A stretch of DNA of 64,000 nucleotides, from contig DATJPD010000082.1 of NCBI GenBank assembly GCA_035506575.1, positions 18,566-82,565 of the forward strand, in the 5' to 3' direction. The translations under genes and the position numbers were made by a program. The DNA comes from Alphaproteobacteria bacterium. Its GTDB lineage: Bacteria > Pseudomonadota > Alphaproteobacteria > CACIAM-22H2. Under the pieces are notes generated by a model. It was not told where the DNA came from and searched no databases. It was given only the letters and a program-made list of their open reading frames with translations. Position 1 is the stretch's first letter. Each line of letters begins with the position of its first letter. Below, piece by piece: positions 12,691-36,865 of this stretch.

Positions 12691-12718
12691 AAAGGGCTGG
12701 CGGAACCGCCAGCCCTTT
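12691..12718. terminator. Bidirectional rho-independent terminator between the GT gene and rpsI
   Basis: A 13-bp stem (aaagggctggcgg aa ccgccagcccttt) flanked by an A-run on one side and a T-run on the other. Confidence 0.7.
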
Positions 12719-12742
12719 CTCGTCTCGTATTGTGAGAGACGG

Positions 12743-15431: not shown

Positions 15432-16715
15432 ATGCCCGATCGCAGAGTCCTGCTGACCCCCGCCGGGCGCGCATCGCGCCAGATCATTCGTCAGGCGTTG
15501 TCGCAGGACGAGCTCAACCGCGCCGCCCAGCTCCACGACGATTTCGTCAATTCGCGCCGCGGCGGCCAGCGCATGAGCTTCTCCGGCCGCGACCTGTCGC
15601 TGTTGAATCTGTCCGGGCTCAACCTCCAGGGCGCCGTGTTCACCGGCTCGGCCTTCTTCAACACCAATCTCTCGAATGCGGTCCTGGACTCGACCATCCT
15701 GTTCGGCTGCGACCTGAGCGATGCCAACCTCCAGGGCGCGTCGTTGCGCGATGCCGATCTGCGGGGCGCCTGCTTCCGCCGCACCAATCTTTCGGGCGCC
15801 AACCTGTCGGGCGCCGACCTGCGCGAAGGCCGCCTCGCGCACCGCGACCGTGACAAAGGCTTCAAGGAAGTCGTGTTCGATGAGGTCGACGCGGCAAACA
15901 TGGAGGGCGCCAATCTCACCAGCGCCAATCTGTCGCTGGCGCGCCTTGCCGCCACGGTGGCCGACCGCGCCGACTTCACCGATGCCAACATGCGCGGCTG
16001 CAAGCTGCCGCGCGCCAATCTCAAACGCGCCATCCTGCGCGGTGCCGATCTCTCGCACGCCGATCTGAGCGGCGCCAATTTGCGGGGCGCCAACCTGCGT
16101 TATGCCGTGCTCATGGGCGCCAGCCTCGCGCACGCGGACACGGCGGAAGCCGACATGACGGGCGTGCTCACCGACGCTCCGGTCGGAAAGCCGATCAGCG
16201 CCCTTCCCCGCCCGCTCGACGCGCTGCTTGCCGACCACGACCGCTTCGTCCGCTCGGCCGGCGCCGAAGGTCGGGCCCTCGACCTCTCGGGCTTCGACCT
16301 GCGCAATGCGCCGGTCCTCACCCGCTTCTCGCTCGCCACGCTGAAGGCAAAAGGGGCCGTCTTCTACGGTCTCGACCTGCAGAACGTCCGCATGCAGGCC
16401 GCCCAGCTCGAAGGAGCGGATTTCCGCTCCTGCCGGCTGGCGGGTGCCGACATGCGCGGCGCCAATCTCACGGAAGCGCTGCTGTCGCACGCCGACTTGC
16501 GCGACAGCGACTTCAGCGCCATCCTCGTGCGTGAGACCATGGCCGTGCCGACCAAGCTGATCCAGGCCGAGTTGCGCGGTGCCGATCTGCGCGGCGCCAA
16601 TCTCTCGGGCGTTAACCTGCGTGGCGCCGACCTCACCGGGGCGCGCCTCGAGGGTGCGAAGCTCGAGAATGCCGATCTCGCGCATGCGGTCGGCGTGCCG
16701 GAGGGGCTCAAGTGA
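15432..16715 (+). CDS. Pentapeptide-repeat protein
   Basis: 427 aa. After a ~50-aa unique N-terminus there are three blocks of A(D/N)LxG-type pentapeptides (ANLSGANLSGADLREG, ADLSHADLSGANLRGANLRYA, and others). Confidence 0.9.
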   Translation: MPDRRVLLTPAGRASRQIIRQALSQDELNRAAQLHDDFVNSRRGGQRMSFSGRDLSLLNLSGLNLQGAVFTGSAFFNTNLSNAVLDSTILFGCDLSDANLQGASLRDADLRGACFRRTNLSGANLSGADLREGRLAHRDRDKGFKEVVFDEVDAANMEGANLTSANLSLARLAATVADRADFTDANMRGCKLPRANLKRAILRGADLSHADLSGANLRGANLRYAVLMGASLAHADTAEADMTGVLTDAPVGKPISALPRPLDALLADHDRFVRSAGAEGRALDLSGFDLRNAPVLTRFSLATLKAKGAVFYGLDLQNVRMQAAQLEGADFRSCRLAGADMRGANLTEALLSHADLRDSDFSAILVRETMAVPTKLIQAELRGADLRGANLSGVNLRGADLTGARLEGAKLENADLAHAVGVPEGLK

Positions 16716-20424: not shown

Positions 20425-21204
20425 TCAGACCACCTCAAATTCCATGAGCTGGATCGGCGCCTGGAAATAGGCGCGGCGGAAAGAGTCCTGGTTCGCGTAT
20501 CTGCTCTGCGGCAGCCGCTTGTATCCCAGCTGCAAACGCAAGGACGGGCGCTCGAACGGATACGGATCGAACCGGACCTTGCGCGGCCCGAGCGCTGTCA
20601 GCCTCAGCGGGATGCCGTCGCGCTTCGAGCTGCCATAGGCGGTGGGTACCGGCTCGATGTAATCGTCACACGGCTCGGCGCAGCAGAAGTACAGTCCAAG
20701 CAGGTCCCACACCTGCAGCAGCCGATAGTTGGTCCATACCTCGTCAGGATCGAACGCTTTGCGCGCCTCCGCCTGACGCTTTTCGTCGCGCTCGATATAC
20801 GCCGCGACCTCGGGCCGGTCGTAGCGCGCGTAATTGTCCGGATGGGTGATCGTGTCGTAACGGTGCCGCCAAAGTCCCGTCCGGTGCATGCTGACGATCA
20901 GCCCGGAATAAGGGTCGATATCGGTCATCCAGTCGCTGCACCACTGGTACGCGTCGAGCTGTTTCTGGCTGAACGGCAACGTGCGGAACTCCGGCGTATC
21001 GCCGCTCTCCAGCAAAATCGGGCTGGTCTCGTAGCGCAGCCAGCCGAAATCATGAAAGGTCGCGGCGCGCACCACCGAATCGTACGGCCTCGGTGCCGCA
21101 AACCGCCCGTTCCCCCAATGCGCCGCCATCTGGCCGACCAGACGGGAGTGATCGGTCTGGCCGATCAGCGTCAGCTGTCCGTCGCTTTCCTTGCGTACGA
21201 TCAC
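20425..21204 (-). CDS. DUF3891-family protein (HD-like metal-binding motifs)
   Basis: This is the C-terminal 260 codons of ORF 20425..21819. GTG start at 21204 is preceded by GGAGGA 7 nt upstream. The sequence begins (M)IVRKESDGQLTLIGQTDHSRLVGQMAAHWGN...AATFHDFGW. It overlaps the upstream gene by 4 nt. Confidence 0.7.
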   Translation of the reverse strand: MIVRKESDGQLTLIGQTDHSRLVGQMAAHWGNGRFAAPRPYDSVVRAATFHDFGWLRYETSPILLESGDTPEFRTLPFSQKQLDAYQWCSDWMTDIDPYSGLIVSMHRTGLWRHRYDTITHPDNYARYDRPEVAAYIERDEKRQAEARKAFDPDEVWTNYRLLQVWDLLGLYFCCAEPCDDYIEPVPTAYGSSKRDGIPLRLTALGPRKVRFDPYPFERPSLRLQLGYKRLPQSRYANQDSFRRAYFQAPIQLMEFEVV

Positions 21205-21914
21205 GGGGATATCCTCCGTTCGTTCGAAGCCGAATTGGGCGCCAGGGCGGCGCACAGCTGCGCCGTACTCGTGACCCAGCCGAGGAAGGTCTCCACCGAG
21301 TAGACGACCGCCTTCTGGACGAAATCCGGTCCCGATTGCTGCGTCGCGTCCTCGACCAGGATGCAGAAATACTCGCGATGGAACGCCTCGCGCAGCGTCG
21401 ATTCCACGCACACGTTGGTGGCGATACCGGTAAAGATCAGGTGCCGGATGTTGCGCGAGCGCAGGATGTTGTCGAGATCGGTGCCGCAAAAGCCGCTGTA
21501 ACGGGCTTTGGGCAGCACGAACTCGTCCGGCCGCGGCACCAGCTCCCCGACCAGTGCGTGGCCCCACGTGCCGTGGGTCAGGATCGTACCGGCGAGCTCG
21601 GGCCGCGCGCGCATCAGCTTCAGCGGGTTGGATTTGTGCCAGTTCGGCGAGTCCGGTCCGCCGGCGTTCCTGAGCGCCGCATCCCAGCCGTTCTGCAGGA
21701 AAACGACGGTCGTGCCCGCCGCGCGCGCGGCATCGAGAACGCGCGCCGTATTGGCGATGACGCCCTTGGCGGGGCCGATATCGCGCCCCATGAGGTCGCG
21801 ATATCCGCGCGGCGAGCAATAATCGTTCTGCATGTCGACGACGACCAGCGCCGTCGTGGCGGCCGAAAATTCGATCGGCTCCGGACGCGCGTTGAGGTGG
21901 AACGAGCTCGGCAT
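21201..21914 (-). CDS. RutB-like isochorismatase-family amidohydrolase (ureidoacrylate amidohydrolase-like)
   Basis: ORF 21201..21953. The start is most likely MPSSFHLNARPEPIEFS at 21914, 4 nt after the upstream stop. There is extended similarity to E. coli RutB as I remember it: ALVVVDMQNDY, FLQNGWD, GGPDSPNWHKSN, LPKARYSGF, and FTGIATNVCVESTLRE with the catalytic Cys. Confidence 0.85.
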   Translation of the reverse strand: MPSSFHLNARPEPIEFSAATTALVVVDMQNDYCSPRGYRDLMGRDIGPAKGVIANTARVLDAARAAGTTVVFLQNGWDAALRNAGGPDSPNWHKSNPLKLMRARPELAGTILTHGTWGHALVGELVPRPDEFVLPKARYSGFCGTDLDNILRSRNIRHLIFTGIATNVCVESTLREAFHREYFCILVEDATQQSGPDFVQKAVVYSVETFLGWVTSTAQLCAALAPNSASNERRISP

Positions 21915-21918
21915 GGGT

Positions 21919-22134
21919 TCACGCGGGGCGATGCGGCGCATCTGGATCGACATGAACGGCGAGCTCGTCGTCCGACGCCCAGACGAGGCCGGCCAGGATC
22001 AGGGGGTCGAGACAGATCGCCATGCCGGTCTGCGCGTCCTCGATGCGCAGGCGTGGCGCGTGGCCCTCGCGGTCCAACGACAGGTGTACCTGCGCGAATT
22101 CGTTCGCCAGCGTCCATGTTTCACGGGTGCTCAT
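21919..22134 (-). CDS. Small hypothetical protein (71 aa)
   Basis: ORF track. A strong SD (GGGAGGAGG) lies just upstream of the ATG and third-position GC is high. It sits between the oxygenase beta subunit and the RutB-like gene. It has a single Cys, so it is not a ferredoxin. Confidence 0.55.
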   Translation of the reverse strand: MSTRETWTLANEFAQVHLSLDREGHAPRLRIEDAQTGMAICLDPLILAGLVWASDDELAVHVDPDAPHRPA

Positions 22135-22149
22135 CGCCTCCTCCCGCGC

Positions 22150-22644
22150 TCAGACAAGATAGGGAATCCCGTCGAGCGGCTCGTCGCATTTCAGCAGCGC
22201 CACTTTCTTTCTCGCGATCTTCCAATCCGCGCCGTTCCGCGCCAGGCGGAACTCGCAGCGCGCCGAATGGATCGCCTGCTTGTGGCGGGTGAGCGCAAAC
22301 AGGACCATGACCGCCGATACCACGAGCGTGCCATCCGCGGCCTCCTCTTCGATCGCGACATTCGAGATCGCCCGGTGCATGCGCGACGGCGGATCCTGCG
22401 CGTGGGCATAGCCGGACTTCAGACGGGCGACGCGGCGCTCCATGTCGGCGCGCGTGTCGTAGATGATCGACACGTGCTGCGCCGGATCGATGTCCCCGTG
22501 GCCGGCCGGCAGCCAATAGATGGCGTCGGCCGTGAACATGTCGAGCCAGTCGTCGAACCGGCCTTCGTCCAGGAGCCGCGCCTCGCGGTACAGGACCTGC
22601 TCGATCGCGGTGCGGTCGATCGCGACGGGGCGCTCAACTCCCAT
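22150..22644 (-). CDS. Aromatic-ring-hydroxylating dioxygenase, beta (small) subunit
   Basis: ORF 22150..22665 trimmed to MGVERPVAIDR. It has the NTF2/SnoaL-like RHO-beta pattern (IEQVLYREARLLDEGRFDDWLDMFTADAIYWLP). It overlaps the alpha subunit stop by 11 nt. Confidence 0.85.
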   Translation of the reverse strand: MGVERPVAIDRTAIEQVLYREARLLDEGRFDDWLDMFTADAIYWLPAGHGDIDPAQHVSIIYDTRADMERRVARLKSGYAHAQDPPSRMHRAISNVAIEEEAADGTLVVSAVMVLFALTRHKQAIHSARCEFRLARNGADWKIARKKVALLKCDEPLDGIPYLV

Positions 22645-23803
22645 GCGCCGCCTCCGGCCGCGCATCGGCAGTCATCAGGTCTTTCCAGCGCCGGTACATG
22701 CCGCGGTGCTGCGTCTCGTCAGTCATCGTGCTGGAGAGATATCCGCCGTGCATCTGCTCGCGCTCCAGTCCGCGCGCGAACACCAGCCATTCGACCGCCG
22801 AGCTCTGCAGACCCTCCTGGGTGCGCTCGAAGATCTCCAGATCGTCGGCGTAGACGACGCCGGCCGGCCCGAACTCGAACTCCTGCCAGCGCATGCGGCT
22901 GAGGTTCAGTTCCTCCGGCACGTTTTGCAGCCGCACGACATTCGTGTAGATCTCCGTCCGGTTGACCGCGACCGGCCTGATCGTGCGGATCTGCGTGCGC
23001 AGCAGGACGAGGTTTGGAAACACGACGACATTGAAGCCGCCGTTGGGCGAACCGCTCGCGGGCAAAGGTCCGGTGTCGCGATGGTCGGTCACCCCGTGGC
23101 CATCCATGTCGACGACCCTGCCCTTCGCCTCGGCGTAGATCTTGAGCGCCTCTTCGGTGAACGTGCTGCGGTGCAGATATTGGACGTGGTACGGGTCGAC
23201 GCCGTTCTCGATCTGGTATTTCCAGTTGCCGTCATAGGCGCATTTCTGCAGGCCCCGGAACACCTCGATCTCACCGGTAGGCGAGACCTTGCAGAATTCA
23301 TCCAGCAGCTCCTTCGTGCCGCCGAGATGCGCATCGAGCGTCGGCCCCTCCGCAGCCATGCTGCCGAAGATGAATCCGCGATGGACAGCAAGCCGGGGCA
23401 CGCGCGCCAGGCTCAGCTCCTCGCGCACGAACGAGGGGCCGTAGCCGCCCGGGTGCGGCACGCCCACGAGCTTGCCGCCGTTGCCGTAGGTCCAGCCGTG
23501 GTAGGCGCAGCGGAAAAACCGCGCGTTGCCGAATTCCTGCTGGCACACGGTGGCGCCGCGGTGGCGGCAGCGGTTGACCAGTGCCGTCACCTCGCCGTCG
23601 CTCTGACGGGCCACGATGATCGGGTGCCTGCCGATGAAGGTCGTCTTGTAATCGCCGGCCTCGCCGATCTCGCTCGTATGGCCAAGATAGACCCAGGAAC
23701 GGCCGAAGATCCGCTCCATCTCGAGATCGAAGATCTCGGGATCTGTGTAGACCGCGCGATGCACCGCGTCGCGCCTGATCAAGCCCGAGAGATCGCGTTC
23801 CAT
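22634..23803 (-). CDS. Rieske [2Fe-2S] non-heme-iron oxygenase, alpha (large) subunit
   Basis: ORF 22634..23836 trimmed to MERDLSG at 23803, with GGAGGAAAG upstream. The Rieske motif is CRHRG...CAYHGW. The mononuclear iron motif is NGVDPYHVQYLH. Confidence 0.9.
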   Translation of the reverse strand: MERDLSGLIRRDAVHRAVYTDPEIFDLEMERIFGRSWVYLGHTSEIGEAGDYKTTFIGRHPIIVARQSDGEVTALVNRCRHRGATVCQQEFGNARFFRCAYHGWTYGNGGKLVGVPHPGGYGPSFVREELSLARVPRLAVHRGFIFGSMAAEGPTLDAHLGGTKELLDEFCKVSPTGEIEVFRGLQKCAYDGNWKYQIENGVDPYHVQYLHRSTFTEEALKIYAEAKGRVVDMDGHGVTDHRDTGPLPASGSPNGGFNVVVFPNLVLLRTQIRTIRPVAVNRTEIYTNVVRLQNVPEELNLSRMRWQEFEFGPAGVVYADDLEIFERTQEGLQSSAVEWLVFARGLEREQMHGGYLSSTMTDETQHRGMYRRWKDLMTADARPEAAHGS

Positions 23804-23813
23804 CTTTCCTCCT

Positions 23814-25235
23814 TCACTGCACGAGGCTCGCGACAATCTCGCGAATGTCGGCGAGCTCGTCGAGGCGACGTACGAGGTCGATGATCTTGTCGAGCCTGTC
23901 GGCCGGCGGCACGATCTTCGCGTAGCCGGCGTTGCTGCGAAATTTCGCCGCGATCTCTTCGAAGGACAGCGGCCGGGTAGGATGGCCGCGCGGCCGCTTC
24001 ACGGTCGCCCCATGTGTCCGTCCGTCGCGCGTGCGGATTTCCAGAACCCCGCCCTCTGGCCCGCCGGGCGGGCTCAAGCCCGGATCGAAGACGTAGGAGA
24101 TGCGCTCGGCCATCGCGAGCGCGGCCGCCTCGGATCGGTGCTTCCCCTTGAAATCGGCCAGCGTGACCGTGCCGTTGACGAGCACCTTGGCCAGGATGAA
24201 TGGCAGGCTGTTCATCGCCGCCGATGACGTGGGTGGACGGCGCCGCACGGCAAGCGGCTCGCTCATCGCACGCCCCCACACGCCGACGCGGACCGTGACG
24301 TCGGCGATGTCGCCCGGCGCGATGTCCTGTGCCGAGATCAACCCCAAGGCTGCCTCGATGAACGGATGCGTGACCAAAGTGCCCGGCCAGAATTTGAACA
24401 CCCGGTTGGCCGAGACGAATGTCTCGCCGAGGCCCGCGCCGAGGGGCCCCCGGTCGTAACGGCCGCCGTAGTGCGCGCCGAACAGGCCGGCCTTGCCGTC
24501 GAACACGGCACCTTGCGCCAGCACGCCGCACTCGGCGAGCAAGGCGCTTTGAACGCCGCCCTGGTTGCAGAAGGCGGCATAGAGCGTCTTGCCCATGCTG
24601 TCGGCGCTATGCACCACGAGCTCTTCGGTCCCGGCCGTCTGCATGAGCGCCAGGCCCAGCGCGCTGTGCATTTTGGCCGGCGTCAGGCCGAGCAGCCGTC
24701 CTGCCGCCGCCGCGGCGCTGAAATATCCGAAGATCTGGGTCGGGATCAGCGCCGGGAACTCATCCGAATCCTGGCCTTGGGCCATCGCCATGGCGAGGCG
24801 ATGCTGGATCTCGCAGCCCACGACGAGTGCCGCGATGAACTCCTGCCCGCTCACGGCCCGTCCCAGGCGCTCCGCTGCCGCGAACGCTGCCGGCACGACA
24901 CATACGGCGACATGTGTCTGCGGGCTCTCCAGGATGTCGTCATAGTCGAGAGCGCGCGCGAGCGTGCCGTTCGCCATCGCGGCCAATGCTGCCGGCACGC
25001 GCCGGCCGGTCGACCAGATCGCCGCCTCGGGTGCACCGCCCTGGGCGGTGACGAACTCGATCACCTCGGCACAGCCTTCGCCGATGCCCGAGGACGCCAG
25101 GGCCACGCCCAACGTATCGAGGACCGTGTTCTTGGCCACCGCCACGATCTCCGCCGGGACGTCCACGAACCGCAGAGACGCGGCGAACTGGCTGAGCGCC
25201 ACGACCGAATCCGGCTGGCTCATGGCGACGTTCAC
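23814..25235 (-). CDS. MmgE/PrpD-family protein (2-methylcitrate dehydratase superfamily)
   Basis: 473 aa. The N-terminus LSQFAASLRFVDVPAEIVAVAKNTVLDTLGVALAS and the segment ALDYDD are typical of the family. Confidence 0.9.
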   Translation of the reverse strand: MNVAMSQPDSVVALSQFAASLRFVDVPAEIVAVAKNTVLDTLGVALASSGIGEGCAEVIEFVTAQGGAPEAAIWSTGRRVPAALAAMANGTLARALDYDDILESPQTHVAVCVVPAAFAAAERLGRAVSGQEFIAALVVGCEIQHRLAMAMAQGQDSDEFPALIPTQIFGYFSAAAAAGRLLGLTPAKMHSALGLALMQTAGTEELVVHSADSMGKTLYAAFCNQGGVQSALLAECGVLAQGAVFDGKAGLFGAHYGGRYDRGPLGAGLGETFVSANRVFKFWPGTLVTHPFIEAALGLISAQDIAPGDIADVTVRVGVWGRAMSEPLAVRRRPPTSSAAMNSLPFILAKVLVNGTVTLADFKGKHRSEAAALAMAERISYVFDPGLSPPGGPEGGVLEIRTRDGRTHGATVKRPRGHPTRPLSFEEIAAKFRSNAGYAKIVPPADRLDKIIDLVRRLDELADIREIVASLVQ

Positions 25236-25254
25236 TCAGCCCTCCCGAGCGGGG

Positions 25255-27630
25255 TCACGCCGTGCGCGCCATGGCGTGCCGCACGGCGGTGACGACCTGC
25301 TCCGGCTTGATCGGCGTTGAGTCGAACTCGATGCCGAAAGGCGACAACGCGTCGGCCACGGCATTGGCGATCGTGACCGGTGGCGCGATCGCTCCGCCTT
25401 CGCCAAGCCCTTTCACTCCCAGCGGATTGAGCGGCGACGGTGTTTCCTGGTGCACGAGCCGGATCTCCGGCACATCGCTCGCGGTCGGCACCAGATAGTC
25501 CATGAAGGACACGGCGAGCGGCTGCCCGTCGGCATTGTAGGGCAGCTCCTCGAGCAAGGCGCCGCCGATGCCCTGCACGGTCCCGCCCACCACCTGCCCT
25601 TCCACCAGCAACGGATTCACCGTGACGCCGCAATCGTGCGCGACCGCGTAATCCTCGATCGTAACGCGGCCGGTCTCGATGTCGACATCGACGATCGCCG
25701 CATGCACCGCGTAGGCCCAGGTGACGGTCGGCGGCTCGTAGTAGTACGTGTCCTCGAGCCCGGCATCCATCCCGTCCGGACGGCGCCGGTCCCAGCCCGG
25801 GCGCGCCGCCTGCGCCAGTGCGGCAAGGCTCACCGTCTTGCCCGGCACGCCGACGATGCCAACCCCGCCGGGGCGCAGTTCGAGATCGGCTTCCGCGCAT
25901 TCCAGGAGGCCGGCGGCGATCGCGAACGCCTTCCTGCTCAGGCGGTCGGTCGCGTGGTGAAGGGCTGCCGACACGGTCACCGTGCTGCGGCTGGCGATCG
26001 TGCCGAACCCCATCGGAATGGCCGCCGTGTCGGCCAGCGACACGACGACGTCGTCCGGATGGACCTTCCAGAGGTCCGCCACGATCTGCGCGAAGATCGT
26101 CTCCATGCCCTGCCCTTGCGGACAGGCGCCCGAGGCAACGTGGATCTTGCCCGTCGTCTCGATGCGTACCGTCGCCCCTTCGAACGGTCCGACGCCGGTG
26201 CCCTCGTTGTAGCAGCCGATGCCGAGCCCGAGATAGCGGCCCTGCTGGCGGGCGGCGCGCTGGCGATTGCGAAATGCCGCGAGGCCGCCCAACGCGTCGA
26301 GCGCCTTGTCGAGCGCGCCCGGATAGTCGCCGCCGTCGAACACGATCGGCTCGCCGTCGCGATAGAGGATGCCGTTCTGGTAGGGCATCTCCTCGGGCTT
26401 GACCATGTTCCGCCGCCGGACCTCGGCCGGCTCCAGGCGCAGCTGCCGCGCGATGAGGTCGATCAGCCGTTCCATCGCCTGCACCGCCTCGGGGCGGCCC
26501 GCACCGCGATAGGGCGCGTTCGGCGTCTTCGTCGTGAAGACAAGCGTGCCGCCGACGGCGAGATTGGGAATCTTGTAGGGGCCGGGAAGATGCACGACCG
26601 TGTTGTAGGCGATCGGCAGGCCAAGCGGATTGAACGCGCCCTGGTCCATGATGAAATGATCGCGCAGCGCCAGGATGCGACCCTCGCCATCGAAGCCGAT
26701 CTCCACATCATGGAACTGGTCGCGGGAATGGCAGGCGCTGATCAGATGCTCGTACCGGTCCTCGATCCACTTGACCGGCCGGCCAAGCGCCCGCGAGAGG
26801 AACGCGATGACCTGCTCCTCTGCATAGGGGTGGCCCTTCACGCCAAACCCGCCGCCGACATCGGGAGCGATACAGCGCACGCGCGCCTCCGGCAGGCCGA
26901 GGCATGACGCGACCGCACCGCGCACCATGTGCACCATCTGGGTCGACGACCAGATCGTGATGGACGACGTGCGCGGATCATACTGGCTGAGGATGCCGCG
27001 GCACTCCATCGGCATCGCGGCGTAGCGATGGTGGTAGTAGCGGCGTTTGATCTTGTGGGGCGCCCGCGCCAATGCCGCGTCCACGTCGCCCTTCGCGATC
27101 GCCATCTCGCCGTTCACATTGTGCCCGAGTTGCTCGTGCACCAGCGGCGATGACGGCTTGAGGGCCGCGTCGACGTCGAGGACGGGCGGCAGCGGCTCGA
27201 TGTCGACGACAGCGAGAGCCGCCGCATCCTCGGCTGCGTAACGGCTGTCTGCCACGATGACCGCGAGCGGCTCGCCCACGTAGCGCACCTTCCCTTCGGC
27301 CAGCGGCAGTTGGCGCGGGTTGTCCGATTTGTGGCGGACGACGGCCCGCCATTTCGCGGGCATCGGCACTTCGTGCGGCGGCCCCGGCGGCGCGAGCTTG
27401 CGGAACTCAGCCCCGGCGAGGACATAGGCCACGCCGGGTGCGGCAGCGGCTTCTCTCAGATCCACGGTGCGAATGTTTCCATGCGCCACCGAGCTGCGGA
27501 TGAACGCAGCGTGCAACATGCCCGGCAATGCGAGATCGGCGACATACTGACCCTGACCGGTCAGCAACCGGCGATCCTCGCGCCGCGGCATTCTCTGGCC
27601 GACGAACCGATCGGTTTTGTGCTCGCGCAT
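25255..27630 (-). CDS. Molybdopterin-dependent hydroxylase, large (catalytic) subunit, CoxL/XdhB family
   Basis: 791 aa. The N-terminus is VGQRMPRREDRRLLTGQGQYVAD. The active-site loop APYRGAGRPEA resembles the form-II CoxL signature AYRGAGR. No CoxS/CoxM-type genes are adjacent. Confidence 0.9.
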   Translation of the reverse strand: MREHKTDRFVGQRMPRREDRRLLTGQGQYVADLALPGMLHAAFIRSSVAHGNIRTVDLREAAAAPGVAYVLAGAEFRKLAPPGPPHEVPMPAKWRAVVRHKSDNPRQLPLAEGKVRYVGEPLAVIVADSRYAAEDAAALAVVDIEPLPPVLDVDAALKPSSPLVHEQLGHNVNGEMAIAKGDVDAALARAPHKIKRRYYHHRYAAMPMECRGILSQYDPRTSSITIWSSTQMVHMVRGAVASCLGLPEARVRCIAPDVGGGFGVKGHPYAEEQVIAFLSRALGRPVKWIEDRYEHLISACHSRDQFHDVEIGFDGEGRILALRDHFIMDQGAFNPLGLPIAYNTVVHLPGPYKIPNLAVGGTLVFTTKTPNAPYRGAGRPEAVQAMERLIDLIARQLRLEPAEVRRRNMVKPEEMPYQNGILYRDGEPIVFDGGDYPGALDKALDALGGLAAFRNRQRAARQQGRYLGLGIGCYNEGTGVGPFEGATVRIETTGKIHVASGACPQGQGMETIFAQIVADLWKVHPDDVVVSLADTAAIPMGFGTIASRSTVTVSAALHHATDRLSRKAFAIAAGLLECAEADLELRPGGVGIVGVPGKTVSLAALAQAARPGWDRRRPDGMDAGLEDTYYYEPPTVTWAYAVHAAIVDVDIETGRVTIEDYAVAHDCGVTVNPLLVEGQVVGGTVQGIGGALLEELPYNADGQPLAVSFMDYLVPTASDVPEIRLVHQETPSPLNPLGVKGLGEGGAIAPPVTIANAVADALSPFGIEFDSTPIKPEQVVTAVRHAMARTA

Positions 27631-27789
27631 TTCTTCCCCTCACGGTCCCGGGCCCGCGTCTTCAGCTGTCGCTTATGCAGGTCTGATGCCAGCCGATGGG
27701 TGCGCGTTTCAATGGCATAGATATTGCTCGATCGGCTCATCCGCCGAGTGATTCCGTATTGAACCAATGGTCAATCAAAGGGGGAGCCC
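27631..27789. promoter_or_regulatory. Divergent control region between the Mo-hydroxylase operon and the ABC transporter operon
   Basis: A 159-nt intergenic region, AT-richer than its surroundings. CAATGG-containing elements recur (ttcaatggca and accaatggtca). GGGGAG lies before the SBP ATG. Confidence 0.4.
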
Positions 27790-28779
27790 ATGATCCGACA
27801 CCTCGCCTTCTCCGTGGTCTGCGCCGCCGTTCTGGCAAGCGCTTCGGCCCAGGCCGCCGACAAGGTCGACTTCATGATCGACTGGGTGCCCACGGGAGAA
27901 GAAGCATATCCGTATGTCGGCGTGCAGGAAGGATACTTCGCGCAGGAAGGTCTCGAGGTGACGATCAAGGTCGGCCGCGGCTCGGTCGATACGATCACAA
28001 AAGTAGCGACCGGCGTTGCCGATTTTGGATCAGCCGCGGTGGGCGCCCTGATGGGTGCAGCCGCGCAAGGACCGGTGCCGGTGAAGGCGATCTACTCGAT
28101 CTACAGCAAGCAGCCCGACGCGATCTTCACCGTGAAGGGCAGCGGCATCACCGCGATCAAGGATTTGAACGGCCGCACGGTCGGCACGGCCACCTTCTCC
28201 TCGTCGAATACGATCTGGCCGGTGTTCGCCACAATGAACGGCCTCGATCTGTCGAAGATCAAGCTTCAGAAGGTCGAGGTGAACACCCTGGCACCCCTGC
28301 TCGCCACGGGCCAGATCGATGCGACGATCAACTGGGTGACGGCCGCGCCCAACACCGAGGCGATCCTCAAGAAGGCCGGCAAGGAGATCGTCGTCCTGCC
28401 GTGGTCGGAGCACGGGCTCGACGGCTACGGCCTCTCGGTCATCGCCGCGGACAAGGTCATCAAGGAACGTCCCGACGTCGTGGCGCGCTTCGTCCGCGCG
28501 TTTACCAAGGTCACCGCGTTCGTGGTGGCCAATCCCGCCGGAGCCGCCAAGGATCTCAAGGCCATGGTTCCCGAGGCCGACCTCGAGTCCGATACCGCCG
28601 AGGCGCGCACGCTCGGGCCGCTCATCAAGAACGAGGTCAGCGAGAAATACGGCATGGGGACCTATGACCCGGCCCTGTTGAAAAAGACCTGGGAATGGGT
28701 GGCCAAGGCCCAGAACTATCCACTCGACAAGCTCGATCCCGAGACGGTCGTCAACCGGACCTTCTCGCCGCGATCCTAG
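27790..28779 (+). CDS. ABC transporter substrate-binding protein, NMT1/THI5 (SsuA/ThiY-like) family, paralog 1
   Basis: 329 aa with a signal peptide (MIRHLAFSVVCAAVLASASAQA). It includes DWVPTGEEAYPYVGVQEGYF, typical of NMT1-type SBPs. Confidence 0.85.
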   Translation: MIRHLAFSVVCAAVLASASAQAADKVDFMIDWVPTGEEAYPYVGVQEGYFAQEGLEVTIKVGRGSVDTITKVATGVADFGSAAVGALMGAAAQGPVPVKAIYSIYSKQPDAIFTVKGSGITAIKDLNGRTVGTATFSSSNTIWPVFATMNGLDLSKIKLQKVEVNTLAPLLATGQIDATINWVTAAPNTEAILKKAGKEIVVLPWSEHGLDGYGLSVIAADKVIKERPDVVARFVRAFTKVTAFVVANPAGAAKDLKAMVPEADLESDTAEARTLGPLIKNEVSEKYGMGTYDPALLKKTWEWVAKAQNYPLDKLDPETVVNRTFSPRS

Positions 28780-28851
28780 CCCGCCGCGCGGCCGGTGGTG
28801 AGGTTGGACCCGTTTTTGCTCTGATGGCGGAAGGGCGCATCGGAGGGATCC

Positions 28852-29028
28852 ATGTTCATCGATCCGAATTTTGAGACATTCTCGGGCGAATTTCTCGTAC
28901 GCGAGGTCGCGGCTTATGGCGGTGAACAGCGGTCCAAGCCGCCCTTTCATCCGATGCAGCGCCTGTGGCGGTGGGCGATCAAAGCGCTGAAGACCCGGGG
29001 ACTCGGCGCCCGCCGTGGCGGGCATTGA
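28852..29028 (+). CDS. Possible small ORF (58 aa) in the SBP-ATPase gap
   Basis: Below the ORF-track size cutoff and found manually. GGAGGG lies 5 nt before the ATG. The translation is MFIDPNFETFSGEFLVREVAAYGGEQRSKPPFHPMQRLWRWAIKALKTRGLGARRGGH. GC3 is only moderate (~two-thirds), so coding status is uncertain. Confidence 0.25.
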   Translation: MFIDPNFETFSGEFLVREVAAYGGEQRSKPPFHPMQRLWRWAIKALKTRGLGARRGGH

Positions 29029-29076
29029 TGCGATATCGGGCGCCGCCCAATATTTCGGCAACATAAAGGCACATGC

Positions 29077-29865
29077 GTGAGCATCCAGGTGCGCCCGGCA
29101 ATCACATTCGAAAAGGTCGGCCGCGTGTTCGGCCTTGCCGACGGCCAGCAGGTGACCGCGCTGCGCGATCTGTCCTTCTCGATCGCCAAGAATGAATTCG
29201 TCGCGATCGTCGGTCCCTCGGGCTGCGGCAAGTCGACCGTCCTGCGGCTGATCGCGGGGCTCATTCCGCCAACCCGCGGCCGGGTCTCGATTTACGAGGT
29301 CGCGGTCGACGAACCCCCGGATATGGTCGGCATCGTGTTCCAGAAGCCGACCCTCCTGCCCTGGCTCGATGTGAAGTCGAACGTGACGTTCCCGATGCGG
29401 CACAAATACGGCCGCGTCACGGAGCAGGATCACAAGCTCGCGCGCGAGCTGCTGGCGCTCGTGGGCTTGAGCGACTTCGCCAGCAGCCGGCCGGACGAGC
29501 TGTCGGGCGGAATGCAGCAGCGCGCCGCGATCGCGCGCGCCCTGCTGCTCGATCCCGAGATCCTGCTCATGGACGAGCCCTTTTCAGCGCTCGATGCGTT
29601 GACGCGCGACGAGATGAGCTTCGAGCTGCTACGCATCTGGACCGAGCGGCCCAAGACCGTCGTCTTCATCACCCATTCGATCCCCGAGGCGGTGCTGCTC
29701 GCCGACCGCATCTTCGTGATGACGCCGCGCCCGGGAACGATCGCGGAGATCATCGACAATCCGCTGCCGCGCCCGCGCGGCATCGATACGCTGGCAGACC
29801 CGGTCTATCATGAGCTCACGACTCGCATCCGCAACACGGTCTTCGCCCGCCCGCGCGCGGCCTGA
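29077..29865 (+). CDS. ABC transporter ATP-binding protein (NitT/TauT family)
   Basis: 262 aa with a GTG start. Motifs present are Walker A GPSGCGKST, the signature LSGGMQQR and Walker B LLMDEP. Confidence 0.9.
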   Translation: MSIQVRPAITFEKVGRVFGLADGQQVTALRDLSFSIAKNEFVAIVGPSGCGKSTVLRLIAGLIPPTRGRVSIYEVAVDEPPDMVGIVFQKPTLLPWLDVKSNVTFPMRHKYGRVTEQDHKLARELLALVGLSDFASSRPDELSGGMQQRAAIARALLLDPEILLMDEPFSALDALTRDEMSFELLRIWTERPKTVVFITHSIPEAVLLADRIFVMTPRPGTIAEIIDNPLPRPRGIDTLADPVYHELTTRIRNTVFARPRAA

Positions 29866-30661
29866 CGGCCCGCCGCGCGCGCGCGCGCAGACCTTCAAGA
29901 AGGTGGCACTCCACCTCGCGCCGACCTTGACCATGCTGGCCATCCTGGCCGTCTGGGAGGCCGCCTGCCGGCTGCTGCATGTGCCGGAATTCCTGCTGCC
30001 GGCACCAAGTGTTATCCTGAAGGCCGCACTTGCGATGAGCGGCTCCGAGTGGGCGGGCCACATCACGAGTACGCTGCGCGTGGCGCTCGAGGGCTACACG
30101 GTCTCGATACTGATCAGCCTCCCGCTGGCCACGATGCTGGCGCTGTCGCCCATCCTGTCGCGGACGATCTATCCGATTCTCGTGGTGATCCATTCGACGC
30201 CGATCGTGGCCGTGGCGCCGATCATCGTGGTGACGCTCGGCGTGAGCGACCTGCCGCGCGTGGTCATCACCTCGATCATCACCTTCTTCCCGCTCGTCAT
30301 CTCGACCGCGACCGGCATCCTGTCGACGCCGGACGAACTCGTCGAGCTCTCGCGCTCGTTGCGTGCCACGCGCGGCCGCGAGATCCTGCAGATCCGGCTG
30401 CCCTATGCGGTGCCGCACATCTTCAGCGCGCTCAAGGTGTCGATCACCCTGGCCGTCGTCGGGGCCGTCGTGGCCGAGTTCGTGGCCGCCGAGCGCGGCC
30501 TCGGTTATGCGATCCTGTTCGCCACCTCGACGTTCAAGATCCCGCAGGCGTTCGCCTGCCTCGTCGTTCTGGTGATGATGTCTCTGATCCTGTTCCGTCT
30601 CGTGGTGACCGCGCAGATGCTCCTCTTCCCGTGGAGCCTGCCGCGCGAGAAACGGGCCTGA
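29810..30661 (+). CDS. ABC transporter permease (BPD_transp_1, NitT/TauT family)
   Basis: 283-aa ORF with multiple TM helices and an EAA-like loop (LSRSLRATRGREILQIRLPYAVP). The ATG at 29810 overlaps the ATPase gene by 56 nt. An alternative GTG start lies at 29903. Confidence 0.8.
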   Translation: MSSRLASATRSSPARARPDGPPRARAQTFKKVALHLAPTLTMLAILAVWEAACRLLHVPEFLLPAPSVILKAALAMSGSEWAGHITSTLRVALEGYTVSILISLPLATMLALSPILSRTIYPILVVIHSTPIVAVAPIIVVTLGVSDLPRVVITSIITFFPLVISTATGILSTPDELVELSRSLRATRGREILQIRLPYAVPHIFSALKVSITLAVVGAVVAEFVAAERGLGYAILFATSTFKIPQAFACLVVLVMMSLILFRLVVTAQMLLFPWSLPREKRA

Positions 30662-30674: not shown

Positions 30675-31151
30675 TCAGCGCGTCAGCTCGACCGCGGCGG
30701 CCCGATAGAGGGCCACGCAGTCCTCGTGCAGCACGCCGGTCACGACCGTAAGGTCCCAGCCGACGAACTCGGCGAAACTTTCGGCCGTGTATTTGTGGAA
30801 ATTGAAGGCGAGCTTCGCCAAGGTCCGGATGTCGGCGTTGCGCGCGCCCAGCACCAGCGTCTTGATGCCGGCGTTCAGGATGGCGCCCAGGCACATCGGA
30901 CAGGGCTCGCAAGTTGCGTAGAACACCGCGTCGGGGATGTGCCGCTCGCCGAGTTTCTGCGTCGCATACTTGATGGCCAGCGTCTCGGAATGCGCGGTCG
31001 CATCGCTCGTCGAGACCTTGAGGCTGCGACTGCGGCATACGACCTGTCCGTGGCGCACCACCACGGCGCCGAACGGCTGCTCGCCCGCGGCGGCACCCGC
31101 CTTCGCCTCCGCAATCGCCATCGCCATGAAATGCTCGTGATCGGTCGTCAT
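30675..31151 (-). CDS. CDA-fold (CMP/dCMP-type zinc) nucleoside/nucleobase deaminase 1
   Basis: ORF 30675..31313 trimmed to MTTDHEHFMAMAIAEAK at 31151, with AGGAGG upstream. The zinc motifs are AHSE and CEPCPMC. Confidence 0.85.
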   Translation of the reverse strand: MTTDHEHFMAMAIAEAKAGAAAGEQPFGAVVVRHGQVVCRSRSLKVSTSDATAHSETLAIKYATQKLGERHIPDAVFYATCEPCPMCLGAILNAGIKTLVLGARNADIRTLAKLAFNFHKYTAESFAEFVGWDLTVVTGVLHEDCVALYRAAAVELTR

Positions 31152-31278
31152 CGATACCTCCTGGTGTCTAGCTGCGCGCTGAGACAGCAAGAAGTATGCC
31201 GAATGTTTGGGCAGCCGTACCGCTGGTCCGACGCTTGCATCGCACAGCGCTAACGCAACGCGATCGAGGGAGCGAGGA

Positions 31279-32586
31279 ATGACGTTTCCGCAATTCCATC
31301 TCGCCTGGTTCACGAATTTCGCACTCGACGAATGGCGCGAGCCGCTGTCATCGGCCGGCGGCGCGCCGTGGACGGGCGACTTCTATGTCGAGATGGCGAA
31401 GACACTCGAACGGGCGTGCTTCGACTACATCATCCTCGAAGATACCCTGATGGTCCCGGAGGCCTATGGCGGCACGTCCGAACATGCGCTCAAAGGCGGC
31501 ATCCAGGTGCCCAAGCACGACCCGGCCCCGCTTGCAGCACTCATGGGTGCGGCGACCTCGCATGTCGGCATCGTGGCGACCCTGTCGACCTTGGGCTATC
31601 CGCCGTTCCTGCTCGCGCGGCTGTGTGCGACCATAGACCATATCGCCCGCGGCCGGTTCGGCTGGAACATCGTGACCAGCGGCGAGAACATCGCAGCCCA
31701 GAATTTCGGCCTGCCCGAATTGCCGGAGCACGACCTCCGCTATGAGATGGCCGACGAGTACATGGATGTCGTCAATCAGCTCTTCGCGTCGTGGGATCCG
31801 GATGCCGTCGTGCGCGACCGCGCCACCAACACCTATGCGGATTTCCGCAAGGTCCGGCCCGTCCACTTCCAGGGCCGGTACTTCAAGTCGCGCGGGCCGC
31901 TGAACACGGCCCCGATGCCGCAGGGCCGGCCGGCCTACATCCAGGCGGGCGGCTCGCCGCGCGGCCGAGACTTCGCCGCCAAGCACGCGGATTCCATCAT
32001 CGCCTCGAGCAACGGGATCGCGGGCATGAAGGCGTTCCGCGACGACGTGCGAAAGCGCGCCGCGAAATTCGGCCGCAACCCCGACGACATCAAGGTCCTC
32101 TTCCTGTTCGCACCGGTGCTCGGCGAGACCGAGGAGGAGGCAAAGGCCAAGAACGAACGCGGGCTTGCCAGCCAGTGGTTCCAGGACCGGGCGCTCGGGC
32201 TCTACAGCGGCATCACCGACATCGACCTGTCGAAATTCGACCTCGACAAGCCGCTCCCTGAGCTGACGACCAACGGCGAGTCCACCTCGCTCGCCAAGTT
32301 CGCCCAGTTCGGCAGCGGCAAGACGTTGCGGCAGGTGATCATGGAGGGCGGCAAGGGCGGCTGTGTCGATTGCGTGGGTACGCCCGAGCAGGTGGCCGAC
32401 CAGATGGCCGACATCATGCAGCAGGTGGGCGGTGACGGCTTCCTCATCAAGCACCCGTTCAACCTCATCAACCGCCGCTACATCCTCGAGGTCGCCGAGG
32501 GCCTCGTGCCGGCGCTGCAGCGCCGCGGCCTGGTGCGCATGCGCTACACCAAGCCGACGTTGCGCGAGACCCTCTGCGAGTTCTGA
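31279..32586 (+). CDS. LLM-class flavin-dependent monooxygenase, NtaA/SnaA/DszA family
   Basis: ORF 31207..32586 trimmed to MTFPQFHLAWFTNF at 31279. The segment ATIDHIARGRFGWNIVTS is typical of group C FMN monooxygenases. Confidence 0.9.
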   Translation: MTFPQFHLAWFTNFALDEWREPLSSAGGAPWTGDFYVEMAKTLERACFDYIILEDTLMVPEAYGGTSEHALKGGIQVPKHDPAPLAALMGAATSHVGIVATLSTLGYPPFLLARLCATIDHIARGRFGWNIVTSGENIAAQNFGLPELPEHDLRYEMADEYMDVVNQLFASWDPDAVVRDRATNTYADFRKVRPVHFQGRYFKSRGPLNTAPMPQGRPAYIQAGGSPRGRDFAAKHADSIIASSNGIAGMKAFRDDVRKRAAKFGRNPDDIKVLFLFAPVLGETEEEAKAKNERGLASQWFQDRALGLYSGITDIDLSKFDLDKPLPELTTNGESTSLAKFAQFGSGKTLRQVIMEGGKGGCVDCVGTPEQVADQMADIMQQVGGDGFLIKHPFNLINRRYILEVAEGLVPALQRRGLVRMRYTKPTLRETLCEF

Positions 32587-32596
32587 GCTTCCGGTG

Positions 32597-32626
32597 CGTC
32601 ATGCCCCGGGAAGCCGGGGCATGACG
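32597..32626. repeat. REP-like palindromic hairpin (CGTCATGCCCCGG gaag CCGGGGCATGACG) between convergent genes
   Basis: A 13-bp perfect stem with a 4-nt loop, lying between the LLM stop (32586) and the SBP2 stop (32637). It shares its arm sequence with the element at ~10648-10680. Confidence 0.65.
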
Positions 32627-32636
32627 TCCCGGGAGA

Positions 32637-33629
32637 CTACGACTTCGGGACGAAGGACCGGTCGACGATCCCGACCGGGTCGATCTTGTCGAGCGGATAG
32701 TTCTGCGCCTTGGCCACCCACTCCCAGGTCTTCTTCAGGAGCTCGGGGTCGAAGGTCCACATGCCGTATTTCTGGCTGACCTCGTTCTTGATCAGCAAGG
32801 CCGCGTTCTTCCACTCAGCGAGGCCATCCTCGGCCGGAATGTCGGGCAGCATGGCGTGGTTGTCCTTGGCGGCGGCCTCGGGATTGGCGAAGGTGAAGTT
32901 GATCGCTTTCGTGTAGGCGCGCAGAAAGCGGGCCACGACCTGCGGCTGCTCCTTGATCACTTTGTCGGTCGCCATCAGCGACAGGCCATATCCCTCGAGC
33001 CCGTATTCCGACCACGGCAGCATGACGAGCTCCTTGCCGTTCTGGCTGAGCACGCGCTCGGCACTCGCCTTGTTCGTCACCCAGCTGATCGTCGCGTCGG
33101 TTTTTCCGGTCGCCAGCATCCCGAACAGCGTGTTGGGATCGGCCTTGATCAGCGTGATCTTGCCGACATCGAGACCGTTGGACTGCGCGAACACCGGCCA
33201 GATCACGTTGGAGGAGGTGAACGGCGCCGTCGCGACCGTCTTGCCGATGAGATCCTTGAGCGTCGTGATGCCGCTGCCCTTGATGGTGAAGATCGCGTCC
33301 GGCTGCTTGACGTAGATCGACGCGATCGCCTTCACGGGCACGTTGCTTTGCGCGACGGCCCCCATGAGCGCCCCGACGGCCGCGGCACCGAAGTCCGCCG
33401 TGCCCGTTCCCAGCTTCGTGATCGTGTCGGTGCTGCCGCGCCCGATGCGCACCGTGACCTCCAGGCCTTCGTCCTTGAAGAAGCCCTCCTTCTCGGCCAC
33501 GTACGGATACGGCTCTTCGCCCGACGGGATCCAGTCGAGGAGGAACGTGACCTTGTCCAACGCATGCGCGGCCGTGCTCGAGAAGAACAGGGCCGACGCT
33601 GCGAGCACCGCAAGGATCGCTTGTCTCAT
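32637..33629 (-). CDS. ABC transporter substrate-binding protein, NMT1/THI5 family, paralog 2
   Basis: 330 aa with a signal peptide (MRQAILAVLAASALFFSSTAAHA). By eye it is about 60-65% identical at protein level to the 27790..28779 product. Confidence 0.85.
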   Translation of the reverse strand: MRQAILAVLAASALFFSSTAAHALDKVTFLLDWIPSGEEPYPYVAEKEGFFKDEGLEVTVRIGRGSTDTITKLGTGTADFGAAAVGALMGAVAQSNVPVKAIASIYVKQPDAIFTIKGSGITTLKDLIGKTVATAPFTSSNVIWPVFAQSNGLDVGKITLIKADPNTLFGMLATGKTDATISWVTNKASAERVLSQNGKELVMLPWSEYGLEGYGLSLMATDKVIKEQPQVVARFLRAYTKAINFTFANPEAAAKDNHAMLPDIPAEDGLAEWKNAALLIKNEVSQKYGMWTFDPELLKKTWEWVAKAQNYPLDKIDPVGIVDRSFVPKS

Positions 33630-33792
33630 AACGCATCTCTCCGCTTAAGAATTGAGCACGCCGCAAAAGGTTTGAACGGCAGATGCCGCGGCGGTGGCTC
33701 GAAGCGCCGCGCGTGCGAAGAAATCTGCAAGCCATATGCCATCGCGAAATGCGTCGCGGCGCGCCGACGTCACGCGCTATAGTTCCGGCACG

Positions 33793-34287
33793 ATGCCGTT
33801 CTCAAAACTCGATCACGAGCGCTTTCTCCGCCGCACCTTCGACGTCGCGCGTGACGCGCGCGCCAATGGACAGCATCCCTTCGGCGCGATCCTCGTGGGG
33901 CCGGATGGCTCGATCCTGATGGAGCAGGGCAACGGCTATTTCCCGGACCGGGACATGACCGCACACGCCGAGCGCCTGCTGATGACACGCGCCTCGAAGA
34001 CCTATCCTCCGGCGGTGCTGCGGGAGTGCACGCTCTACAGCTCCGCCGAGCCGTGCGCGATGTGCGCCGGTGCGATCTATTGGGCCGGGGTCGGCCGCGT
34101 CGTGTTCGGCGCCAGCGAATTTCAGCTCAAGTCGATGACCGGCAATCATCCGGAAAACCCGACCCTCGATCTCCCCTGCACCACGGTGTTCGCCGCGGGC
34201 CAGCGCGCGGTCGAGGTGATCGGTCCCCTTCTCGCCGATGAGGCCCTGGCGCTCCACCAGGGTGCCTGGGACGCGCCGCAGGCCTAA
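33793..34287 (+). CDS. CDA-fold (CMP/dCMP-type zinc) nucleoside/nucleobase deaminase 2
   Basis: ORF 33694..34287 trimmed to MPFSKLDHERFLRR at 33793. The zinc motifs are HAE and AEPCAMC. It is clearly different in sequence from deaminase 1. Confidence 0.85.
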   Translation: MPFSKLDHERFLRRTFDVARDARANGQHPFGAILVGPDGSILMEQGNGYFPDRDMTAHAERLLMTRASKTYPPAVLRECTLYSSAEPCAMCAGAIYWAGVGRVVFGASEFQLKSMTGNHPENPTLDLPCTTVFAAGQRAVEVIGPLLADEALALHQGAWDAPQA

Positions 34288-35321: not shown

Positions 35322-35357
35322 GACACCCCCTCGCCCTTCGCCCGCCACCAGGTTGGA

Positions 35358-36860: not shown

Positions 36861-36865
36861 GGCGG

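Follow-up and report, generated by a model that had tools for sequence, protein, structure and literature searches.

How does a molybdenum (Mo) hydroxylase dispose of its electrons when only its catalytic subunit is encoded, and where does a Rieske oxygenase in the same operon obtain them with neither a reductase nor a ferredoxin gene at its side? We address this question for a stretch of 64,000 nucleotides from a soil alphaproteobacterium (assembly GCA_035506575.1, contig DATJPD010000082.1, positions 18,566 to 82,565), hereafter the window, whose own numbering is used for all coordinates. A sequence-only reading of this DNA had suggested, as a speculation, that the Rieske centre receives its electrons straight from the Mo enzyme, possibly with a PrpD-family or a 71-amino-acid (aa) protein as adaptor, and had named as the mundane alternative that the partners of both enzymes are encoded elsewhere. 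We find it highly likely that the operon encodes the catalytic part of a canonical (LMS)2 Mo hydroxylase together with a Rieske oxygenase, which act in successive steps of N-heterocycle catabolism and each receive their redox partners in trans. Here L stands for the large subunit that binds the molybdenum cofactor (Moco), M for the FAD subunit (CoxM) and S for the [2Fe-2S] subunit (CoxS). As judged from sequence comparison, the partner genes have been scattered in an ordinary way, and the locus does not encode a new kind of directly coupled enzymes.

Gene content of the operon

Genes were called in the window with a filter on third-position G+C (GC3) followed by Pfam scans. We found seven genes in one minus-strand operon (20425-27630), separated by only -35 to +19 nt and arranged in the order Mo subunit, PrpD-family protein, Rieske alpha, Rieske beta, a conserved 71-aa protein (p71), RutB-like hydrolase and DUF3891 protein. 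The operon genes listed by the sequence-only reading were all recovered, but its list lacked the RutB-like hydrolase and the DUF3891 gene (20425-21204). No terminator-like sites were found between the seven genes, and a promoter and terminator scan returned nothing exceeding chance. The G+C content of the window is about 66%, and its composition shows no break around the operon region. An Rfam scan for riboswitches that could give a clue to the substrate (e.g. thiamine pyrophosphate or Moco) matched one tRNA only.

The Mo subunit is intact and under constraint

The first gene of the operon (25255-27630, minus strand) encodes the large, Moco-binding subunit of a Mo hydroxylase, assigned by Pfam, PDB matches and motifs. 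Its 791 aa are covered over their full length by the domains PF01315 Ald_Xan_dh_C (79 bits), PF02738 MoCoBD_1 (270 bits) and PF20256 MoCoBD_2 (253 bits), with E values from 4e-22 to 2e-80; this is the three-domain architecture (a/b-hammerhead and two Moco-binding domains) of the XDH/CoxL family. The best PDB matches were QorL (1t3q_B, E 4.5e-161), Kdh (7dqx_A, E 5.5e-151) and CoxL of M. smegmatis (8uem_A), and the protein aligned with all three, which are (LMS)2 enzymes, from end to end. In this alignment with QorL, KdhL and CoxL, a comparison that the sequence-only reading had itself recommended, the active-site and Moco residues are intact: the Gln in SSTQM (residue 228), GGGFG (259), the loop APYRGAGRPEA (372), ASRST (546) and the catalytic Glu in GLGEGG (741). 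The description of the protein as CoxL/XdhB-type with the APYRGAGRPEA loop is thus borne out, and by its sequence it is a QorL/KdhL-like catalytic subunit of the 'form II CoxL' type. Form I carbon monoxide dehydrogenase (CODH; VAYRCSFR loop) was considered and rejected, because the loop of the window's L (APYRGAGR) is without the Cu-binding Cys and the curated CODH models stayed far under their cutoffs (NF040766, 758 vs 950 bits; TIGR02416, 522 vs 991 bits).

We compared the protein with 27 L subunits that are linked to M and S genes. It keeps the residue in 253 of the 268 columns that are invariant across this group, and 10 of its 15 deviating positions are common to the L of locus L253, which is of the L-M-S type. 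The ratio of nonsynonymous to synonymous substitution rates (dN/dS) against conspecific copies was 0.06-0.08, with equally low values in the neighbouring genes, showing purifying selection. Since the invariant residues are kept and dN/dS is low, the L gene appears functional and resembles an ordinary LMS-type L.

Redox partner genes are absent from the window

We searched the window for partner genes in four ways, and each was negative over the whole 64 kb, which extends what the sequence-only reading had stated for an 18-kb island. Pfam was run on nearly every one of the 59 GC3-supported open reading frames (ORFs) and on the DUF3891 gene, and gave no match to Fer2/Fer2_2, to FAD_binding_5/CO_deh_flav_C or to FNR-type and GR-type reductases; a 60-aa ORF (49904-50086, minus strand) outside the Pfam scan was covered by the motif and tblastn checks. 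The six-frame translation contained neither of the CoxS motifs QCGxC and CRCTGY. No credible ferredoxin Cys motif was detected in the 64 kb, where the sole Rieske CxH...CxxH motif is that of the Rieske alpha subunit itself. Finally, CoxM and CoxS queries from related loci gave zero tblastn matches to the window. A divergent intergenic (promoter) region of 159 bp (27631-27789, from the ORF map) separates the Mo subunit gene from NMT1-type transporter genes, and no remnant of coxS or coxM was found in it by tblastn or motif search. The earlier designation of XdhC as a [2Fe-2S] subunit was mistaken, as XdhC is a maturation chaperone.

The neighbouring genes include an FMN monooxygenase of the NtaA/DmoA family (31207-32586, plus strand; TIGR03860, 413 bits), for which no flavin reductase gene was found in the window. 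With this monooxygenase also lacking a local reductase, three redox enzymes of the cluster depend on partners that are not locally encoded.

The Rieske oxygenase belongs to a conserved module

The Rieske alpha gene (22634-23803, minus strand) encodes 389 aa from the likely ATG at 23803, in an ORF that reaches 23836, and matches the Pfam domains Rieske and Ring_hydroxyl_A. All motifs reported for it by the sequence-only reading were found, namely CRHRG (residue 90), CAYHGW (110; CRH-x17-CAYH) and DPYHVQYLH (214), and they make up the signature of the alpha3beta3 type, with the Rieske CxH...CxxH and the bridging Asp that precedes His-x4-His. The Rieske beta gene (22150-22644, minus strand; 164 aa, ORF reaching 22665) shares 11 nt with the end of the alpha gene, across its stop codon, and is supported by Ring_hydroxyl_B (112 bits), SnoaL_4 and a gene call on an identical contig from the Joint Genome Institute (JGI). 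Among the NCBIfam models, the alpha subunits of benzoate, phenylpropionate and anthranilate dioxygenases were closest to Rieske alpha, all of them far under their cutoffs. The dedicated reductase gene, with or without a ferredoxin gene, that is common but not obligatory in Rieske systems (PMC7907043) is absent from the 64 kb.

Close relatives of Rieske alpha were found in only a handful of loci (61-73% identity). All those long enough to show gene order keep PrpD-RieA-RieB-p71 or RieA-RieB-p71, where RieA and RieB are the Rieske alpha and beta genes, usually near an ABC importer of the same type as in the window; the arrangement of the importer genes is kept beside the Rieske module in L081, L082, L084 and L248. 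Of the four reference loci closest to the module, three (L081, L082 and L084) have no Mo subunit within 10 kb. In the fourth, L083, a coxM-coxS-coxL set, with an L 67% identical to that of the window, lies 3 kb from the Rieske module. In L253, an L of likewise 791 aa, 77% identical over its full length, is followed by CoxM and CoxS genes and stands beside PrpD-RieA-RieB-p71; Pfam confirmed both partners (FAD_binding_5 and CO_deh_flav_C in CoxM, Fer2 and Fer2_2 in CoxS). In L250, an L 83% identical over the available 321 aa is arranged as L-M-S and adjoins RieA-RieB-p71. The adjacent coxM and coxS that are the norm in the XDH/CoxL family are thus present in L253, L250 and L083 and missing in the window. 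An L without partner genes beside Rieske genes was found in L243-L245 (the species of the window), in L247 (a near-conspecific genome) and in L248. Taken together, these loci show Mo enzyme and Rieske oxygenase genes as recurrent neighbours, an arrangement consistent with membership in a shared pathway.

A crude scan for motifs detected no ferredoxin or reductase signature in 34 out of 60 loci of the RieA family that have 10-kb flanks, and unlinked electron-transfer genes appear to be the usual state in this family. Around the four closest module loci, for two of which (L081 and L082) the flanking genes were scanned with Pfam, we recognised neither a ferredoxin nor a reductase gene. Small ferredoxin-like motif matches occurred only in L082 and L083; they fall in unvetted ORFs, one of them within the Mo subunit gene of L083.

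L genes without M and S neighbours are frequent in related bacteria

We scanned species-representative genomes with the L of the window and obtained 80 loci with 56-68% identity, whose neighbours were searched by tblastn. This reference collection has no close relative of the window (best Mo subunit match 68%; best H+-PPase match 78%, in Stella vacuolata). Both coxM and coxS adjoin L in 26 of the 80 loci and are absent within at least 3 kb on either side in 38; the remaining 16 also show neither gene, on flanks too short to judge. The Mo-PrpD-Rieske arrangement of the window occurred in none of the 80 reference loci. A Rieske alpha-like gene near a partner-less L was found only in L047; it has 30% identity and lies some 1 kb upstream of L in the same orientation. 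A mixed set of genes surrounds the partner-less L genes (TauD-type dioxygenases, TctC, VOC proteins and others), and no conserved alternative redox neighbour was detected among the 54 partner-less loci. In a neighbour-joining tree, M/S-linked and partner-less L genes are interleaved, so the linkage to M and S was lost on several occasions.

Across metagenome-assembled genomes (MAGs) of soil Alphaproteobacteria, including Xanthobacteraceae, Stellaceae and 'MFD' bins, partner-less L genes of this clade have a wide distribution (L001-L059, e.g. L001 at 10001-13258). A TauD/TfdA-family dioxygenase gene follows shortly downstream of L on the same strand in 16 loci, about 90 nt away in L001.

M and S genes occur in trans in a near-conspecific genome

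The near-conspecific MAG GCA_019233865.1 carries the corresponding partner-less operon on contig JAFAMA010000382 (L247; Mo subunit 95% and Rieske alpha 94% identical to those of the window) and a coxM-coxS-coxL set on a separate contig, JAFAMA010000294, in agreement with the alternative that the partners are encoded elsewhere. Its p71 and CoxM protein accessions lie 382 apart, which served as the same-assembly test; by the same accession-based test, P0042 and P0002 come from different MAGs. Locus L329 (8001-14067), from a metagenome series that also yielded window-like contigs, is orthologous to the coxM-coxS locus of the MAG (M 91%, S 96%). Its order is coxM-coxS-L1-L2, i.e. one M-S pair with two L genes, and L1 is 65% identical to the L of the window.

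Surplus L genes were also found in other loci, such as L182 (L-L-M-S), L240 (three L genes with two M-S pairs) and L331. In a scan with CoxM, which returned 80 loci, about 9 of the 80 M-S pairs had no L within 6 kb, and none of the loci shared an assembly with the partner-less-L loci. The gene stoichiometry of L to M/S in these bacteria is clearly not 1:1, and surplus L genes together with L-less M-S pairs are what would be expected of M-S pairs that are shared by two or more L subunits.

Accessory proteins of the operon

The p71 gene (21919-22134, minus strand) is recognised by its homologues. This rare family comprises 12 homologues of 71-87 aa with 31 invariant columns and one conserved Cys, and neither Pfam nor NCBIfam gave a match. 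In every related locus long enough (L081-L084, L248, L250, L252-L254), p71 lies directly 3' of Rieske beta. An AlphaFold2 model of moderate confidence shows four strands and one helix (beta4-alpha; pLDDT 72), and a comparison with PDB folds gave no match with E below 0.3. The idea that p71 carries electrons or is a known adaptor was rejected, since with a single Cys and no Fe-S ligand set the protein cannot be a carrier of a known type such as a ferredoxin, and it has no domain or fold match. Its fixed position behind the beta subunit suggests that p71 may be an accessory protein of the oxygenase.

The PrpD-family protein (23814-25235, minus strand) has 473 aa, or 469 aa from an alternative start at 25223, and matches MmgE_PrpD_N and MmgE_PrpD_C. 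Its best PDB matches were cis-aconitate decarboxylase and iminodisuccinate epimerase (E about 1e-29). It was not accepted as 2-methylcitrate dehydratase PrpD itself (NF042438, 40 bits vs a cutoff of 950) and is assigned to the MmgE/PrpD superfamily only.

The RutB-like protein (21201-21953, minus strand) is an isochorismatase-family amidohydrolase of 250 aa, or 237 aa in the conspecific calls in L243-L245 (Pfam Isochorismatase, E 4e-43). The RutB equivalog was rejected (TIGR03614, 318 bits vs a cutoff of 378; no rutA or rutC-G context), and the luciferase-like monooxygenase gene of the cluster is of the NtaA/DmoA type, not RutA. The protein scored 139 bits against the BiuH model.

The last operon gene (20425-21204, minus strand) encodes a DUF3891 protein of 259 aa, supported by a frame-specific GC3 profile, Pfam DUF3891 (E 2e-39) and a JGI gene call. 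H...HD-like motifs occur in its sequence. In the deltaproteobacterial/Binatia-like loci L184, L195, L197 and L224, a DUF3891 gene that is 31-32% identical stands directly upstream of coxM-coxS at 5154-5933 (plus strand); coxL then follows in L184, L195 and L197, and L224 ends within coxS. Such repeated linkage with Mo hydroxylase genes suggests that this uncharacterised family is an accessory to these enzymes or takes part in their pathways.

Alternative explanations

Instead of entering the respiratory chain, electrons could pass from the Mo enzyme straight to the Rieske centre, perhaps by way of the PrpD-family protein or p71, or be recycled to it through CoxS/CoxM supplied in trans, which would give a redox-neutral, NAD(P)H-free pair of hydroxylations. 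The stoichiometry fits, with two electrons released and two consumed, partner genes are absent from the 64 kb, and a partner-less L stands beside Rieske genes in three lineages (the species of the window, L247 and L248); the lack of a recognisable reductase or ferredoxin gene near any module relative examined, and the repeated closeness of the module to XDH-family genes, are compatible with this but are explained equally by a shared pathway. We nevertheless consider such coupling extremely improbable, because the closest L homologues next to an orthologous Rieske module (L253, L250, L083) carry coxM and coxS, and M and S are found in trans in the near-conspecific MAG. These are two of the three findings that the sequence-only reading had itself named as speaking against coupling, which fails on both; on the third, degenerate Moco-binding residues, the intact residues indicate a functional L and do not thereby favour coupling. 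Moreover, three of the four closest module loci have no Mo subunit within 10 kb, and at least 38 partner-less L genes stand in other contexts, only one of them (L047) with a distant Rieske alpha-like neighbour. The surface of L that binds S shows no sign of remodelling. In solved members of the family Moco is buried and passes its electrons to Fe-S I of S, and in Kdh both Fe-S clusters are buried as well and S is embraced by the N-terminal domain of L (PMC8305194). Neither suggested adaptor fits this role: p71 contains a single Cys and lacks any cofactor motif, and members of the PrpD family do not carry out redox chemistry.

The Mo subunit gene might instead be a functionless remnant stranded by rearrangement, with only the PrpD-Rieske part still active. 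The closest relatives are L-M-S, hence the partner-less state is derived, and the Rieske module apparently works in other genomes without a nearby Mo subunit. Against this, the ORF is intact with the same length of 791 aa as in L253, every catalytic and Moco motif is present, dN/dS between two partner-less copies is as low (0.06-0.08) as in the neighbouring genes, and the first position in the operon is kept across lineages at least 5% apart in protein sequence, so that we regard a remnant as very unlikely. Somewhat different is the possibility that L pairs with an acceptor other than CoxS/CoxM encoded elsewhere, such as an IorA-like Fe-S protein or a protein of the cytochrome c or pseudoazurin type. 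Enzymes of the XDH family use varied terminal acceptors, e.g. the cytochrome c domain of NicB, and as partner-less L genes are frequent in this clade, a common alternative partner is conceivable. However, the solved and characterised members of the subfamily (Qor, Kdh, CODH) all use S and M, the residues invariant in the M/S-linked group are kept, which argues for the same interface, and the 54 partner-less loci lack a conserved alternative redox neighbour; we judge this explanation distinctly unlikely.

Several points also weigh against a canonical hydroxylase and an oxygenase that are both served in trans. The trans M/S pair was observed only in the near-conspecific MAG, where binning errors are possible, a limit that arises because the genome of the window lies outside the reference collection. 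The tie of this pair to the operon is one of gene presence, and a literature search on M/S subunits shared between L paralogues returned nothing relevant, as did searches on partner-less coxL genes and on clusters of PrpD, Rieske and XDH genes. A candidate reductase or ferredoxin for the Rieske oxygenase was found neither in the window nor in the module relatives examined. Finally, the pairing of a partner-less L with Rieske genes recurs in a more distant contig (L248; Mo subunit-RieA-RieB-p71, Mo subunit 66% identical), showing that the linkage is not a one-off; shared pathway membership accounts for this.

Proposed pathway

In the pathway that we propose for the canonical Mo hydroxylase and the Rieske oxygenase, the NMT1-type ABC system beside the operon would bring in an N-heterocycle, probably carboxylated. 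A first hydroxyl group, derived from water, would be placed beside the ring nitrogen by the Mo enzyme. The FAD (M) and [2Fe-2S] (S) partners of this enzyme would come from a different locus, most likely from a coxM-coxS pair that already works with at least one paralogous L. A second hydroxyl group, derived from O2, would be added by the Rieske oxygenase, which would draw on an NAD(P)H reductase encoded elsewhere, with or without a ferredoxin. The PrpD-family enzyme (a putative decarboxylase, dehydratase or isomerase), the RutB-like amidohydrolase and the DUF3891 protein may then process the product. The M/S pair, the order of the reactions and the substrate given here are those that we infer. 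On this view, what unites the two hydroxylating enzymes in one operon is a common series of substrates, not an exchange of electrons.

Neighbouring genes and other features of the window

Divergent from the operon lies a NitT/TauT-type ABC importer (27790-30661, plus strand), with genes for an NMT1-family binding protein, a 58-aa ORF, an ATPase and a permease (Pfam NMT1, ABC_tran, BPD_transp_1). The 58-aa ORF (28852-29028, plus strand), between the binding-protein and ATPase genes, is also a called gene on the JGI contig, and L243 and L245 retain it; neither a domain match nor a Cys motif was found in it. The remainder of the catabolic cluster (30675-38455) contains genes for two CDA-fold deaminases, the NtaA/DmoA-family FMN monooxygenase, two further NMT1 binding proteins and two amidohydrolases, as identified by Pfam, TIGR03860 and JGI gene calls. 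The two amidohydrolase-superfamily genes (about 500 and 529 aa) are adjacent at 35358-38455 (minus strand), inside or overlapping a mechanically called 863-aa ORF in a different frame; such long spurious ORFs occur throughout the window because of its high G+C. The island is identical at the protein level on soil-metagenome contigs of 18.2 kb or less.

Outside the island, we found a pentapeptide-repeat protein of 427 aa (15432-16715, plus strand; 217 bits, seven stretches) between enoyl-CoA hydratase and CoA-binding protein genes, and the sole tRNA gene of the window (46526-46599, minus strand). A housekeeping run (57650-63109, minus strand) comprises an AIR-synthase-related gene, ribH, ribBA, riboflavin synthase, ribD, nrdR and part of the serine hydroxymethyltransferase gene. 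Next to it, two overlapping ORFs of very high G+C (56937-57653, minus strand, and 57111-57596, plus strand) had no family match, with the Pfam scan covering the minus-strand ORF only.

Implications and comparison with known systems

Direct coupling, if true, would have been a new wiring of two classic hydroxylase families, but the evidence shows otherwise. The locus is instead a comparative example of how very often L genes of the XDH/CoxL family are uncoupled from M/S genes in soil Alphaproteobacteria. Given this frequent uncoupling and the existence of loci in which two L genes accompany one M-S pair, neither annotation pipelines nor marker-gene surveys based on 'coxL' should take for granted one L for every operon-encoded M-S pair. 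The analysis also exposes a conserved, uncharacterised catabolic module of PrpD-family protein, Rieske alpha/beta and p71, found beside NMT1-type transporters, deaminases and amidohydrolases, whose substrate is probably an N-heterocycle. Its enzymes belong to known kinds; the catabolic cluster is poorly characterised.

Among the known systems, QorLMS of Pseudomonas putida 86 (1t3q) shares with the L of the window the Gln, GGGFG, the AYRG-x-G loop and the catalytic Glu. Qor hydroxylates an N-heterocycle next to the ring nitrogen, as we propose for the enzyme of the window, and in the quinoline pathway a Rieske-type oxygenase, OxoO/OxoR, acts after it. The Qor M, S and L genes are contiguous, whereas M and S genes are not within the 64 kb of the window, and the residues lining the active site differ.

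A Mo dehydrogenase with an alpha/beta Rieske oxygenase acting behind it is an established design, and the pic cluster resembles the pathway proposed for the window in its logic: both combine Mo hydroxylation, an alpha/beta Rieske oxygenase, a decarboxylation-type step and an amide hydrolase, PicF being an isochorismatase-family amidase. Picolinate is degraded by the Mo dehydrogenase PicA followed by the four-component Rieske oxygenase PicB1-4, a decarboxylase and an amidase, and each oxidative enzyme has its own redox components (10.1101/530550). Unlike the window, which encodes no redox partners, the pic cluster encodes three PicA subunits and the ferredoxin and reductase of PicB, and a PrpD-family protein stands in the window where PicC would stand.

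KdhLMS of Paenarthrobacter nicotinovorans pAO1 (7dqx) provides a case in which, as in the window, the L gene is not contiguous with M and S. The gene order on pAO1 is kdhL - pnh - kdhMS (PMC10494377), and the enzyme is still a normal LMS holoenzyme (PMC8305194). The M and S genes of pAO1 are only one gene away from kdhL, in contrast to those for the window, which are at least tens of kb off or on another replicon.

For the Rieske oxygenase, the pyrazon oxygenase of Phenylobacterium immobile E and the phthalate-family oxygenases offer the closest parallel, since their alpha subunits are likewise not clustered with ferredoxin or reductase genes and use shared partners encoded elsewhere; none of the 19 Rieske alpha subunits of P. 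immobile is clustered with redox partners (PMC7907043). In P. immobile, an alphaproteobacterium, the beta subunits are unlinked too, whereas in the window the alpha and beta genes adjoin and that of the conserved 71-aa protein comes next.

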